This document shows positions 1 through 3,011 of a stretch of DNA of 64,000 nucleotides, one piece after another. The DNA comes from Enterobacteria phage GEC-3S. Each line of letters begins with the position of its first letter. Position 1 is the stretch's first letter. The notes beneath the pieces were generated by a model that worked only from the letters and a program-made list of their open reading frames with translations, did no database searches and was not told where the DNA came from. The stretch lies in the sequence record HE978309. One strand, given 5' to 3'. A program made the translations under genes and the position numbers.

Positions 1-68
1 GTATGTTGAGCAAAGACAGCGTAGGTAAAAACGCATACTTCCGTCGTGTATGGGTTAAAGGTTGCTAA
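1..68 (+). CDS. 23: Major capsid protein gp23, C-terminal fragment (5' end outside window)
   Basis: Frame-3 translation ...SVGKNAYFRRVWVKGC* matches conserved T4 gp23 C-terminus (...GKNAYFRRVYVKGI); gene 24 follows as in T4. Confidence 0.8.
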   Translation, partial: MLSKDSVGKNAYFRRVWVKGC

Positions 69-153
69 TATAAGCCATTTCTGAAAAACTCCGGTCGGGT
101 GCAATACCCGACTTATCATAAACCTTATGACAGTGTAAAGTGTTAATTCCAAA

Positions 154-182
154 GGGAAGACTCGAAAGGGTCTTCCCTTTTT
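154..182 (+). terminator. Rho-independent terminator downstream of gene 23
   Basis: GGGAAGAC / GTCTTCCC stem with 8-nt loop followed by TTTTT. Confidence 0.7.
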
Positions 183-198
183 GCGTATTATATCCCGT

Positions 199-206
199 TA
201 TAAATA
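199..206 (+). promoter_or_regulatory. T4-type late promoter core TATAAATA
   Basis: Exact TATAAATA directly after gene 23 terminator; downstream target unclear (small ORF at 568 is about 360 nt away). Confidence 0.4.
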
Positions 207-567
207 AGGTTGCAAGCCTATATTCTATTGGGAGCGAAAATAGATACACACAACAAAGACGGAAGATGCAGAACATCGGTGGGTCGCGAGCCTAAATCCA
301 GTGGCTATGATATGTGTGATTGCTTTTGATGCTGGATTTATTAAAACACAACAAACAATTCCACCAATTTTCGTAGTAACCGCATGGCAAAGGACCAATG
401 AATGAAATGAGCGTTCATGTTGATATTGTGTCGGATAGATTTGGTAGATATACAGATCTGGTGTATGTCGACCTTGTTATGGCATTCCAGCGTGACGCTA
501 GCGGTAATTTTTGGTTTTGGTACGCTGTTCCCTGAATTAACCCAAAATTCTCCATAAGGAGGAATGC

Positions 568-720
568 ATGAGTAAGAAAGAAAACAGCTATGTTATGACT
601 CGTAAGGAATACAACGAATTGATGTTAGCATTAGCTTATGCAATTATTCGTTCTGATCATGCAATTAATCTGGTAAACAAAGTTAACCGTAGCGTTGATA
701 ATGTTTCTAGGAAGAAGTAA
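568..720 (+). CDS. Hypothetical small protein (50 aa) between genes 23 and 24
   Basis: ATG preceded by AAGGAGG at 5-nt spacing; MSKKENSYVMTRKEYNELMLALAYAIIRSDHAINLVNKVNRSVDNVSRKK; below ORF-track size cutoff. Confidence 0.35.
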   Translation: MSKKENSYVMTRKEYNELMLALAYAIIRSDHAINLVNKVNRSVDNVSRKK

Positions 721-729
721 GTTTATTTT

Positions 730-758
730 GGAATCCTTCGGATTCCTTTTTCTTTTTT
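730..758 (+). terminator. Hairpin plus T-run terminator upstream of gene 24 promoter
   Basis: GGAATCC-TTC-GGATTCC followed by TTTTTCTTTTTT. Confidence 0.5.
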
Positions 759-759
759 G

Positions 760-767
760 TATAAATA
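760..767 (+). promoter_or_regulatory. T4-type late promoter (TATAAATA) for gene 24
   Basis: Exact TATAAATA about 38 nt upstream of gene 24 ATG. Confidence 0.6.
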
Positions 768-804
768 TGATATATCCATTAAGGCAAATACAGGATTCAT
801 AAAC

Positions 805-2046
805 ATGACTCATATTTTTACTGAACTGTTGCGGGAATCTACTTCCTCAGTAGCTAACCAGACAGCGCGACCGCAACTATTATCATTAACTCGCGCGGTA
901 AACAACCTGATTTTCTCTGATCTGGTAGCAATCCAGCCAACGGATCAACCAGTATCTGCATTGTACGGCCTACGTTATCTTAATCATGATGGTCAGATGA
1001 CTTTCCGAACTGCTGCAACCTACGGTGGCGCGGTTGGTGATCGCACAGAGATTGAAGAGTTTTCAAAAGAAAAATCTTATGACGAAGGCGCACTATTCAA
1101 ATCAGGCGATGTTGTATACGAAGTTGTGACCGCTGGTACAGTCGGTGAAGATGCCGCAACTCCAGAAGCTGCGATCTTTAAAGGCGTAATGACAAACAAA
1201 ATTCGTTTCTATAGCGATTGTGCATCGGTAGAATACTTTGAAGATAAAAACACCGAAATTGCGTCTACCTCTATGCAGTTTGACAAGTGGCAAGTTAATG
1301 TAGGTTCTCGTAAACTGAAAACCTCGTTCACCACTGAATTAATGCAGGATCTTGAGGCAAGCCAAATCAACTCTGAAAACTCTGTAATTGATCTTCTGGC
1401 TACTGTTGCTTCCGAAGAGATCAACAAAGATATTATTCAGAAGTTGATCACTGTATCATCTCGCTATAAAATTAAAGGGATCACCCCTGATGGCGTACTT
1501 TCTCTCGTTAGCGTTCAGGATGCACCAACACAAGCGCGTGAACTTTACCGCTATGCTTGCGAGATGAGCAATCAAATGTTGCGGACTTCCTCCTTTGCTG
1601 GTACATACGTTTTGGCGTCTTCTCGCGTGGTTGGCCTCCTGCAATCTTCCGGTTGGATGGAAGAAACCGACAATGCTCTAAGCGAAGGTCGTCTACGTTG
1701 CGGTCTGGAAGTGTACGCAGACACGACAACACCTTTCGATTATATGCTCGTTGGTTGTAAGCACATGATCGGTGATATGGAGAGTGTAGGTTCTCTGTTC
1801 TACTCCCCATATACAGAAGCCGACGGCGCTGGCGCGTATAAGAGTGTAATTGACCCTAATAGCTTCCAGCATCATGTAGCTATTATGAATCGTTATTCAC
1901 TCTCTGTCAACCCATACACATCAAAAGTTGATCAGGAAGAACACCAGGTCATCAAGGGTGACGATTGGGGTAAAATGGCTGGACGTTCAGAAATGTCCTA
2001 CATTTTAGGAATCGAACTGCCACCGCTTGAGATTGACAACGCTTAA
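805..2046 (+). CDS. 24: Head vertex protein gp24 (gp23 paralog)
   Basis: MTHIFTELLREST... aligns with T4 gp24 (MAKINELLRESTT...; SRKLKT..ELAQDLEA; MAGRS); ORF-track ORF 757 starts at TTG, first ATG with AGGA at 805. Confidence 0.9.
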   Translation: MTHIFTELLRESTSSVANQTARPQLLSLTRAVNNLIFSDLVAIQPTDQPVSALYGLRYLNHDGQMTFRTAATYGGAVGDRTEIEEFSKEKSYDEGALFKSGDVVYEVVTAGTVGEDAATPEAAIFKGVMTNKIRFYSDCASVEYFEDKNTEIASTSMQFDKWQVNVGSRKLKTSFTTELMQDLEASQINSENSVIDLLATVASEEINKDIIQKLITVSSRYKIKGITPDGVLSLVSVQDAPTQARELYRYACEMSNQMLRTSSFAGTYVLASSRVVGLLQSSGWMEETDNALSEGRLRCGLEVYADTTTPFDYMLVGCKHMIGDMESVGSLFYSPYTEADGAGAYKSVIDPNSFQHHVAIMNRYSLSVNPYTSKVDQEEHQVIKGDDWGKMAGRSEMSYILGIELPPLEIDNA

Positions 2047-2634
2047 CTAAATATCTAACCAAGACAAGTCAGATCCGCCCAAGATTTTTTCGACGGCGGA
2101 TCTATTTTCTTGATGATATAAGTTAAAACATGGTATCCCATGTCTACGGGCAACATAAACAGCAATTCGAGTTCCTCCCGAAACGATTCCATTAACTTCT
2201 TTCGCCCAGAATATCACACAATCTACAGGATCATCAAGTGTCTCACCTAAGACTTGAGCAACATTTCTAGAAAACAGATTTTGCATGTATAACGGTATAG
2301 AACGAGGATTATCATAAACGTGTTCTAATTCATCCATCGCCAGATTTTTTTGTTCTAAGGTTTGCCATGCAATCACATCATGACCGTTATGCTTGTGGTC
2401 ATAAAACTTCCAATTTGGAATGAAAATTTTTCTATAATCTGGATCGTAATACTTCATGAAAGCATTGTCCATACCGTAAGCCCCTCCAGAATGCGCTACA
2501 ACGCGATTTTCTGACAATACCCTCCCAATGGTACTAGCCATTATCAAAATGTCGCTAGGCGCTTTTCTAGAGCCGATTAAAGCACATCTACGAAGTGGTT
2601 TTACTCCAAATAGATCTTGTAACTGGTCAAACAT
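2047..2634 (-). CDS. DprA/Smf-like Rossmann-fold protein
   Basis: Motifs IGSRK, SGGAYGMDNA, FSRN, GGTRIAVYVARRHGIPCF resemble DprA Rossmann domain; GGAGG RBS; function inferred. Confidence 0.6.
   Translation of the reverse strand: MFDQLQDLFGVKPLRRCALIGSRKAPSDILIMASTIGRVLSENRVVAHSGGAYGMDNAFMKYYDPDYRKIFIPNWKFYDHKHNGHDVIAWQTLEQKNLAMDELEHVYDNPRSIPLYMQNLFSRNVAQVLGETLDDPVDCVIFWAKEVNGIVSGGTRIAVYVARRHGIPCFNLYHQENRSAVEKILGGSDLSWLDI
2071..2111 (+). terminator. Possible terminator for gene 24 embedded in 3' end of convergent gene
   Basis: 9-bp stem AGATCCGCC/GGCGGATCT with long loop followed by T-rich run; weak. Confidence 0.3.
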
Positions 2635-2786
2635 AATATTTCCTCCATAGAAAGCAATATCATACTACAAGTTAATAACAAATACAAGTATCCGCGTAGC
2701 GGAAGCGAGCACAGCGAGCAATAAAACACTTCCAGTAATTGATTAATAAATGTTCGAAACAAATTTTTATTATTCTATAAGATAAG

Positions 2787-2812
2787 TCTTCGTTTTGATC
2801 ATAATTTAATCA
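2787..2812. repeat. 26-bp direct repeat, copy 1 (TCTTCGTTTTGATCATAATTTAATCA)
   Basis: Perfect 26-bp repeat in AT-rich intergenic region upstream of DprA-like gene. Confidence 0.8.
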
Positions 2813-2935
2813 TACATGTAAAAACTACACAAAAGGATATCGCTTCGCGAACTCCTACGGAGTATAACATTTGTGTTACAATATGTAGTGATTAATAATT
2901 AACCAAAGATACATTTTCTATGTTCTAAAGATCTT

Positions 2936-2961
2936 TCTTCGTTTTGATCATAATTTAATCA
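2936..2961. repeat. 26-bp direct repeat, copy 2
   Basis: Identical to copy at 2787-2812, 149 bp apart; nearby TGATTAATAA also duplicated. Confidence 0.8.
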
Positions 2962-3011
2962 AACAGTATTAATATTGTGCACATGTAAACTAAAATTATG
3001 TTAATAACAGA

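Follow-up and report, generated by a model that had tools for sequence, protein, structure and literature searches.

T4-type late promoters, which depend on gp55, gp33 and gp45, carry a consensus octamer at positions -13 to -6; we use the definition as quoted from PMC1524935. For RB49, a relative of the phage studied here, the late promoters Pl:94970 and Pl:95534 were predicted in 2006 by Nolan et al. (Additional file 5; PMC1524935). In T4 itself, the gap between genes 23 and 24 holds segD, which encodes an antisense GIY-YIG endonuclease (PMC2988022).

The window analyzed here, the whole stretch of 64,000 nucleotides, belongs to a Krischvirus (an RB49-like phage) and not to T4. It is 98.9% identical to ECD7, and its nucleotide identity to 58 Krischvirus records is 96-99%. 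As in T4, the intergenic site between the capsid and the vertex genes of this phage contains lineage-specific extra DNA. The content differs, however: segD is an antisense gene for a homing endonuclease, whereas the DNA in the window is on the sense strand, appears to be driven by a late promoter and is without an endonuclease domain. A search of the two annotated plus-strand ORFs (398-535 and 568-720) with Pfam and PHROG profiles gave no match to a GIY-YIG or HNH domain. The first-pass annotation had recognized no coding gene at this position in T4; this overlooks segD, and for a Krischvirus genome the comparison with T4 was misplaced.

Our reading of the interval, to which we assign a probability of roughly 80%, is that it comprises a late transcription unit, a deletion scar and a real small gene. 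The finding is real but largely ordinary: the promoters and the ORF are not new, the scar is the added result, and the understanding of T4-like late transcription and capsid assembly is unchanged. The features are, by position in the window:

3-68, plus strand: 3' end of gene 23 (major capsid protein), stop codon at 66-68, from the ORF list
151-183, plus strand: intrinsic terminator of gene 23, with a 13-bp stem, a GAAA loop and a U tract
199-206, plus strand: predicted T4-type late promoter octamer TATAAATA, exact match, 3' of the gene 23 terminator
207-262, plus strand: putative leader and first-codon remnant of a lost 102-aa gene, compared side by side with five intact relatives and aligned pairwise to metagenomic locus L015
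265-414, plus strand: putative pseudogene fragment of a ~570-aa fibre-like gene, covering residues ~398-446 of the complete protein, with changes of frame inside the fragment
398-535, plus strand: 45-aa ORF (Phi1 ORF161.1, phrog_20809), the probable open remainder of the 309-aa gene fragment, annotated in many relatives
404-557, plus strand: putative pseudogene fragment of a ~309-aa gene, the C-terminal 50 codons, with a +1 frameshift in the T run at 508-512
556-562, plus strand: Shine-Dalgarno site AAGGAGG of the 50-aa gene, with a 5-nt spacer to the ATG
568-720, plus strand: 50-aa gene (RB49p162, Phi1 ORF162, phrog_16600) for a basic 5.8-kDa protein, predicted to be a single helix
730-758, plus strand: intrinsic terminator after the 50-aa gene, from a terminator scan; hairpin at 730-746 with a 7-bp stem, a 3-nt loop and a T run
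760-767, plus strand: predicted late promoter of gene 24, TATAAATA, exact match, predicted start near 773
805-2046, plus strand: gene 24 (capsid vertex protein), ATG at 805, annotated in relatives

Promoters and terminators between genes 23 and 24

The product of gene 23 is annotated as the major capsid protein in every matching record, and gene 24 matches PF07068 at E = 2e-88 as well as phrog_138. The hairpin behind gene 23 (151-180) has a folding energy of -20.9 kcal/mol (z = -5.4), and none of 200 shuffled sequences folded equally well. The records of Makalu_001, G2494 and G2248 list it as a terminator, and it is conserved among divergent relatives. The terminator behind the 50-aa gene has an energy of -9.2 kcal/mol (z = -3.9). 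Its stem is kept in relatives through two-sided changes, with GGAATCC/GGATTCC in one case and GGGGATTCC/GGAATCCC or GGGGAGCC/GGTTCCC in the others. The gap between genes 23 and 24 has the features of intrinsic termination, namely a GC-containing stem-loop, a U run and a stem preserved by changes on both sides.

The octamers at 199-206 and 760-767 correspond to Pl:94970 and Pl:95534, respectively. This independent RB49 prediction (PMC1524935) agrees with the first-pass annotation, which had put a late promoter directly after the gene 23 terminator; its placement of a small ORF between this promoter and that of gene 24 is also borne out. The frequency of TATAAATA in the window is not raised, with 7 copies in 64 kb where 5.9 are expected; 7 copies were reached in 41 of 100 shuffles. 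This count alone is uninformative, and the first octamer is judged not to be a chance occurrence because its position is kept in divergent relatives. Six of them, with different flanking intergenic sequence, have it in this place behind the gene 23 terminator, and the position is common to the loci L006, L007, L010, L011 and L015. The octamer 5' of gene 24 was present in all seven relatives checked. Exact octamers on the same strand as the late genes and 5' of them, in conserved positions and at both published RB49 places, suggest that the two elements are late promoters of the T4 type. Taking the first octamer as -13 to -6, the predicted start of its transcript is near 212. In one respect this promoter departs from the T4 type: no gene stands directly behind it, since the cistron at this place seems to be dead, and 356 nt separate the promoter from the first gene that can be translated.

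The octamer at 199 could also be a relic, in which case most expression of the 50-aa gene would come from the very strong late transcript of gene 23, by read-through of that gene's terminator. The frequency of the octamer, which is not above chance, would fit this, as would the fact that the cistron it originally served now has no start codon. The octamer and the Shine-Dalgarno site of the 50-aa gene are invariant in 15 close relatives, but for an 8-nt octamer at about 10% site variability this invariance is not significant by itself and is also compatible with a relic. On the other hand, the gene 23 terminator that would have to be passed is strong, with its long hairpin and U tract, and the octamer is exact, is placed as in all relatives that bear the gene cassette described below and was scored as a late promoter by a model trained on RB49. 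We consider it unlikely that the octamer is a mere relic, and the two routes of expression are not mutually exclusive.

The interval between the first promoter and the 50-aa gene

The first-pass annotation had passed over the ~360 nt between the first promoter and the 50-aa ORF. Comparison with relatives indicates that they are the deletion scar of a larger late operon, with fragments of three of its genes. A cassette of genes for a 102-aa protein, a fibre-like protein of ~570 aa and a protein of ~309 aa is present in G2248, JK32 and Brandy; it also occurs in the metagenomic loci L008-L013, L015 and L016, and in relatives it sometimes includes an additional coiled-coil gene. A scan of IMG/VR gave no more than three loci. 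Positions 1-252, 257-389 and 434-900 of the window align to three separate stretches of the G2248 locus, and the same pattern was obtained with L015, which is close to the window and carries the cassette.

Each of the three fragments has lesions of its own. In the remnant of the 102-aa gene, the Shine-Dalgarno sequence AAGGGGAG is degraded to ATTGGGAG (228-235) and the start codon is changed from ATG to ATA (244-246). The fragment of the 570-aa gene was found by tblastn with intact ~570-aa proteins against the window (E = 5e-10 and 2e-11); its motif PKSSGYDM is in frame 3 and the flanks of this motif are in frame 1. It contains 39 indel columns and 11% variable sites across 15 close relatives. 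Its identity by blastn to L007, L015 and L006 is 70-74%. The divergence from intact alleles (71-75%) was considered as a sign of long decay and the idea was dropped, because in this segment intact alleles differ from each other to the same extent (69-80%). The fragment of the 309-aa gene was detected by tblastn in frame 2 (E = 1e-15), while its last 15 residues follow in frame 3 with 93% identity. The TAA that originally ended the gene (555-557) shares nucleotides with the Shine-Dalgarno site of the 50-aa gene.

The scar also varies far more than the gene behind it. Among the 15 close relatives, 32 of 301 sites are variable in the scar (10-11%) and there are 45 indel columns, versus 3 of 153 sites (2%) and no indels in the 50-aa gene (Fisher p = 6e-4). 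Homology to internal parts of intact genes, disabling lesions and relaxed constraint together argue for pseudogene remnants.

An alternative is that positions 207-567 are functional themselves, either through the 45-aa protein of ORF161.1 or at the RNA level, as a non-coding RNA or a structured leader with a regulatory role. Many genome annotations include the 45-aa ORF, and it has a PHROG family of its own, 20809. This family, however, matches the intact 309-aa protein of G2248 at residues 261-302 (2e-20), in line with an origin of the ORF from the C-terminal end of the 309-aa gene by frameshift. Insertions break the ORF in RB49 (4 nt) and in kaaroe (1 nt), and in E26 and JSE it ends differently. 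In 57 records its amino-acid identity is 53-98%, with no identical copy and with several matches split in two. It also has no well-placed Shine-Dalgarno site: the nearest AGGA (391-394) precedes the first ATG by 3 nt and the second by 12 nt. These comparisons mark the 45-aa ORF as a fragment of a pseudogene rather than a gene in its own right, and the widely copied "hypothetical protein" should be dropped from gene annotations.

With regard to RNA structure, a UUCUCC upstream of the Shine-Dalgarno site of the 50-aa gene is able to pair with it. Sequestration of the site by such a hairpin, which is predicted for the window and loosely for relatives, was dropped with z values of -0.3 to -1.7 relative to shuffled sequence. 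The leader of ~355 nt as a whole folds no better than shuffled sequence (z = -0.01), and an Rfam scan of positions 1-3000 at E <= 1 gave no match. Neither folding energy nor Rfam identifies the leader as a structured non-coding RNA or a riboswitch-like element. A function of 207-567 in its own right is very unlikely.

The direction of change could also have been the opposite, with the short arrangement ancestral and the cassette a later insertion between genes 23 and 24 in phages such as G2248 and JK32. This gap is a known insertion site, which is variable among T4-like phages and occupied by segD in T4, and presence or absence of the cassette varies between closely related genomes. Insertion cannot, however, produce an out-of-frame internal piece of the 570-aa gene, an out-of-frame C-terminus of the 309-aa gene and a leader of the first gene with a mutated start codon; moreover, every divergent metagenomic lineage of the 50-aa family that was examined carries the cassette. 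We regard insertion as highly improbable.

Under the deletion reading, the interval would be an RB49-like late transcription unit that has lost most of its genes. Ancestrally, a gp55-type late promoter after the gene 23 terminator would have driven an operon with the 102-aa gene, the ~570-aa fibre- or receptor-binding-like gene, the ~309-aa coiled-coil gene, sometimes a long coiled-coil paralogue and, as the last cistron, the 50-aa gene; the operon would have ended with the terminator directly 5' of the gene 24 late promoter. In the lineage of the window, two deletions would have removed about 2.7 kb. What would be left is the promoter, a leader of ~356 nt composed of three decaying gene fragments, and the intact last cistron with its own strong ribosome-binding site. 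We infer from this layout that the promoter at 199 probably still fires late, giving a transcript from ~212 to ~750 with the 50-aa protein as its only translated product. Read-through from gene 23 may add to this transcript.

The 50-aa gene and its product

The first-pass annotation had noticed a 50-aa ORF with a strong AAGGAGG at 568. The ORF and the site are both present, but 568 is the position of the ATG and the site lies upstream at 556-562. The ORF had further been taken as unrecognized, while in fact it is already known: it is the gene annotated as RB49p162 in RB49 and as ORF162 in Phi1, and it is annotated in Makalu and in essentially every Krischvirus record. The protein is 100% identical in amino acids to that of RB49, the gene occupies the same position before gene 24, and PHROG family 16600 matches over residues 1-50 of 50 (E = 1.5e-38). 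None of the papers searched mentions the gene or its locus tags.

Conservation in relatives, which had been proposed as a check on the ORF, is clear. The ORF is intact in all 57 GenBank relatives, 40 of which have an identical protein, and all homologues are 48-51 aa long, a length that remains fixed down to about 50% identity. Against divergent relatives the dN/dS ratio is 0.08-0.35, with synonymous sites saturated; one example of the differences by codon position is 15, 6 and 34. The Shine-Dalgarno site is unchanged in close relatives except for an adjacent one-base insertion in GoldenSnicker, and all divergent relatives have a purine-rich site (GGAG, GGGG or AGGAG) 5-8 nt 5' of the ATG. Within the clade that suffered the deletion, the gene has only three substitutions, one synonymous and two nonsynonymous. 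The argument for selection after the deletion therefore comes mainly from the contrast with the scar and from the lack of indels.

It could be argued that the ORF is not a gene and that what is conserved is an element of the DNA or RNA close to gene 24, given the very small size of the ORF and the lack of homologues beyond the lineage. Such an element would not account for the distribution of differences over the codon positions, the low dN/dS, the constant length or the conserved Shine-Dalgarno site, and we give this explanation next to no credence. On the sequence comparisons, the 50-aa ORF can be regarded as a real protein-coding gene; purifying selection on it is seen between lineages and, with weaker evidence, inside the deleted clade. 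It would be a true lineage-restricted small late gene that has outlived its operon partners, and it offers a clean knockout target in RB49.

Searches for relatives of the protein gave no homologue outside the phage lineage by tblastn at E <= 10, in a search of 5.8 billion proteins, in a profile search of 1.84 billion representative proteins, in Pfam, in NCBIfam or among PDB sequences. Together they recovered only the 50-aa family and one spurious repetitive protein. BLASTP revealed no similarity to the cassette proteins, to gp24 or to the DprA-like protein. The AlphaFold2 model has a helix at residues 12-49 (pLDDT 88.8); this helix is basic and has a coiled-coil heptad pattern.

T4 gp57A is a small helical phage fibre-assembly factor. 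The 50-aa protein resembles it by analogy in being short, all-helical, presumably late-expressed and of coiled-coil heptad pattern, and in relatives its gene is the last in an operon of fibre-like and coiled-coil proteins. In contrast to what is expected of a dedicated chaperone, however, the 50-aa gene is retained where the fibre-like genes are deleted. No match to chaperone families of the gp57A-like or Tfa-like type was found in Pfam, function-assigned PHROGs, NCBIfam or PDB sequences. Since phages without the fibre-like genes still have the 50-aa protein, its role would extend beyond the cassette. That the basic helix takes part in virion morphogenesis as a factor for assembly or attachment is a tentative suggestion that we hold to be possible but not probable.

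The cassette in relatives

The predicted structure of the 570-aa protein matches tail-fibre, receptor-binding, C1q and TNF-like structures, albeit with low TM-scores and a pLDDT of 61, and there are weak matches to PHROG tail-fibre families. From this model we tentatively call the protein fibre-like.

Multiple receptor-binding proteins have never been found in Krischviruses (PMC9569957). The sole phage with the cassette in that study, Brandy49, had the broadest host range and was OmpA-independent. The deposited 570-aa gene of Brandy49 carries a 1-nt frameshift, and its gp38 also differs. The lost cassette might have been an accessory fibre or second receptor-binding system, with the 50-aa helix as an anchoring or assembly subunit kept indispensable by a second role at the head or vertex; we consider this doubtful and offer it as speculation. 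If it were true, therapeutic phages that are otherwise nearly identical would owe part of their differences in host range to whether they have the cassette. Among the RB49-like phages in therapeutic use, a fibre-like late-gene cassette of 3-5 kb located among the head genes is a point of difference, one that may merit adsorption testing; there is apparently no discussion of this cassette in the literature.

The 570-aa and 309-aa proteins gave no match among PDB sequences, and homologues of the two occur only within this phage lineage. PF27308 is precomputed on some of the 570-aa homologues. The 309-aa protein and the coiled-coil protein have an N-terminal domain in common.

Signals between genes 23 and 24

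Window 1-900 is 96-99% identical to 58 records of Krischvirus phages (the RB49-like 'pseudo-T-even' phages), with ECD7 as the best match (98.9%); beyond Krischvirus only the final 50-60 bases of gene 23 have matches. This is therefore not a T4 genome, and the gene content of T4 is not directly comparable. The first-pass annotation had described a late promoter behind the gene 23 terminator and, ahead of the gene 24 promoter, a 50-aa ORF with an AAGGAGG site at 568. This observation is real and the signals were read correctly, except that AAGGAGG itself lies at 556-562 and position 568 is the ATG. The remark that T4 has no recognised gene at this position was misplaced; T4 carries segD, an antisense GIY-YIG endonuclease, between genes 23 and 24 (PMC2988022).

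Features between genes 23 and 24 (window coordinates, strand, description)
66-68, +, end of gene 23 (sequence)
151-180, +, gene 23 terminator, a 13-bp hairpin followed by a U tract (-20.9 kcal/mol, z = -5.4)
199-206, +, late promoter octamer TATAAATA (exact sequence)
556-562, +, AAGGAGG, 5 bases 5' of the ATG (sequence)
568-720, +, 50-codon ORF, ATG at 568 (sequence)
730-746, +, 7-bp hairpin, then a T run (z = -3.9)
760-767, +, second TATAAATA (exact sequence)
805, +, start of gene 24 (sequence)

The octamer is the T4 late consensus, located at -13 to -6 (Nolan et al. 2006, PMC1524935). It is not enriched in the window (7 copies observed vs 5.9 expected), so its significance comes from position and not from count. 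The first copy occupies the same place 3' of the gene 23 terminator in 6 relatives with otherwise diverged intergenic sequence; the second precedes gene 24 in 7/7 relatives checked. Among the 17 late promoters predicted for RB49 are Pl:94970 and Pl:95534 (Nolan et al. 2006, PMC1524935), and conversion of RB49 to window coordinates showed that these intervals contain the two octamers. Both predicted late promoters and the 50-aa ORF are already annotated or published for RB49.

A separate 20-nt hairpin, GGTCGGGTGCAATACCCGAC (93-112), lies 25 nt 3' of the gene 23 stop codon and is nearly invariant across all divergent relatives despite differing flanks. It occurs once in the window; it lacks a U tract on the + strand and is followed by a T run on the - strand. 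It may serve to stabilise the mRNA 3' end or as a processing site.

Conservation of the 50-aa ORF

The 50-aa ORF is a gene, as its pattern of conservation shows. It is annotated as RB49p162 (RB49 RefSeq), as ORF162 (Phi1) and as a hypothetical protein in nearly all other records, and PHROG 16600 matches the protein end to end (E = 1.5e-38). A tblastn search found it at full length in 57 phage records, 40 of them identical in protein sequence and 15 with one residue changed; identity was 92% in G2248 and 60% in JK32. A search of 5.8 billion proteins gave 16 clusters of homologues, all of 49-51 aa and down to 52% identity, and just three additions (48-49 aa) came from a profile search of 1.84 billion representatives. 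One further profile match, a repeat protein, was judged spurious. Against divergent homologues the third codon positions were the most changed (for example 15, 6 and 34), and dN/dS was 0.08-0.35 (Nei-Gojobori) with synonymous sites near saturation. Every divergent relative has a purine-rich ribosome-binding site 5-8 nt upstream, and each has the order 50-aa ORF, hairpin, TATAAATA, gene 24; the stem of this hairpin is kept despite changes on both sides.

The protein is small and basic (5.8 kDa, pI 9.9). AlphaFold2 models it as a single helix (residues 12-49, mean pLDDT 88.8) for which a heptad register is plausible; none of its segments is hydrophobic enough to span a membrane. Sequence searches of Pfam, NCBIfam and PDB gave no matches. 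The Shine-Dalgarno site can pair with a UUCUCC just upstream (548-563, 6 bp, -6.8 kcal/mol); in the window and its relatives no pairing of this type was better than shuffled controls.

A deletion scar upstream of the 50-aa gene

An operon occupies the gene 23-24 gap in G2248, JK32, Brandy, the IMG/VR contig L015 and every divergent metagenomic lineage examined, with the order 102-aa, ~570-aa, ~309-aa, sometimes a 437-656-aa coiled-coil gene, and the 50-aa gene. The window aligned to these loci in three separate pieces. The first (1-252) spans the gene 23 end and stops in the opening codons of the 102-aa gene; the second (257-401) falls inside the ~570-aa gene (~74% identity); the third (397-900) opens with the 50 C-terminal codons of the ~309-aa gene, continues beyond it and is 96% identical to L015. 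At the protein level, 265-414 matches residues 398-446 of the ~570-aa protein (E = 5e-10). Residues 260-306 of the ~309-aa protein correspond to 404-544 (E = 1e-15), and its C-terminal 15 residues (510-554) match in another frame because of an extra T in the run 508-512. In the ~570-aa fragment PKSSGYDM is in frame 3 and its flanks are in frame 1. The leader of the 102-aa gene is still recognisable; its Shine-Dalgarno site has changed from AAGGGGAG to ATTGGGAG and its start from ATG to ATA (244-246).

Given these frameshifted fragments and the lost start, 207-567 is the scar of two deletions, ~2.7 kb in total relative to L015. The opposite course, with the short form original and the cassette inserted in the other phages, cannot account for the out-of-frame internal gene fragments of the window. 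What is newly added is that the 'empty' part of the gene 23-24 interval is a gene-loss scar.

The alignment of 15 scar-type genomes distinguishes the fragments from the 50-aa gene (Fisher's test on variable sites, p = 6e-4).

Constraint in 15 scar-type genomes (region, variable sites, indel columns)
~570-aa fragment, 17/150, 39
~309-aa fragment, 15/151, 6
50-aa gene, 3/153, 0

In the ~570-aa fragment the indels measure 22, 13, 2 and 1 nt; one of those affecting the ~309-aa fragment is a 4-nt insertion in RB49. The 50-aa gene appears to be still under selection after the loss of its operon partners.

Many records annotate a 45-aa ORF at 398-535 (family phrog_20809). This ORF is what remains open of the ~309-aa fragment and is a pseudogene fragment, which for a commonly annotated ORF is new information. 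In the intact G2248 protein the phrog_20809 profile aligns with residues 261-302 (2e-20). Across 57 genomes the ORF has 53-98% amino-acid identity with no identical copy, and frameshifts divide several of the matches; it has no well-placed ribosome-binding site. The leader RNA has no excess of structure over shuffled sequences (z = -0.01) and no Rfam match.

The cassette proteins and a possible role

No homologues of the cassette proteins were found outside this phage lineage. The ~570-aa protein has a short collagen-like Gly-X-Y stretch and weak PHROG matches to tail-fibre families. Confidence in its AlphaFold2 model is moderate (pLDDT 61) and rises in the C-terminal beta domains; with low TM-scores the model matches phage baseplate and fibre proteins, a pyocin fibre, a lactococcal phage receptor-binding protein and C1q/TNF-type jelly rolls in the PDB, and tail-fibre, BppU and C1q-domain viral proteins in BFVD. 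These structural matches are suggestive only. The ~309-aa and the variable coiled-coil proteins have a common N-terminal domain (E = 3e-19, 9e-14), resembling fibre proteins in which the anchor is common and the distal parts differ. Because of this domain and the ~570-aa matches we regard the cassette, with moderate confidence, as a set of fibre-like late proteins. Three homologues of the ~570-aa protein (P0023-P0025) have a precomputed Pfam match, PF27308.

The extra coiled-coil gene ('tropomyosin-like', 437-656 aa) lies between the ~309-aa and 50-aa genes in some relatives (L006 7422-9263; L010 6017-7987; L011 6659-7969), and over its first ~60-120 residues it is a paralogue of the ~309-aa protein N-terminus. 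In the metagenomic relative L010 (3306-5019) the ~570-aa gene is a 467-aa plus a 92-aa ORF; such a split or truncation suggests cassette decay in other lineages too.

Golomidova and colleagues (PMC9569957) reported a dependence on OmpA or O antigen for RB49, Cognac49 and Whisky49, and infection of every strain tested, by a route left unexplained, for their close relative Brandy49. The cassette is present in Brandy, RB49 and Cognac have the scar, and the matches of Whisky follow the pattern of the scar-type JSE group. A link between cassette and Brandy49 host range is speculative, since Brandy gp38 is also divergent and the deposited ~570-aa gene is split. In Brandy (L027, MZ504876, 2812-4541) this gene is annotated as two overlapping CDSs because of a 1-nt deletion in the A run TTTAAATGG relative to L015, either a sequencing error or a real inactivation.

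From the promoter sequence, transcription would start near 212 and cross the dead leader, ribosomes would bind the strong Shine-Dalgarno site (556-562) and synthesise the 50-aa protein, and transcription would stop at the hairpin 730-746, leaving gene 24 to its own promoter. Gene 23 transcripts that read through may contribute as well. The 50-aa gene is predicted to be expressed together with head and fibre-like genes. This co-expression, the basic helix with its coiled-coil pattern and the selection after partner loss lead us to a tentative and rather doubtful guess, that the protein is a small morphogenetic factor and has a partner other than, or in addition to, a cassette protein.

Downstream, gene 24 and a convergent DprA-like gene (2047-2634, minus strand) abut directly. 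Within the 3' end of the DprA-like ORF an inverted repeat, AGATCCGCC...GGCGGATCT, leads into T-rich sequence (2044-2110); it looks like a bidirectional terminator common to both genes. In L010 (11676-15506) and L011 (12566-16153), two large Ig-domain-rich proteins (~410 and 847 aa, minus strand) are encoded downstream of gene 24, adjoining an Inh-like gene, and resemble capsid decoration proteins of the Hoc type.
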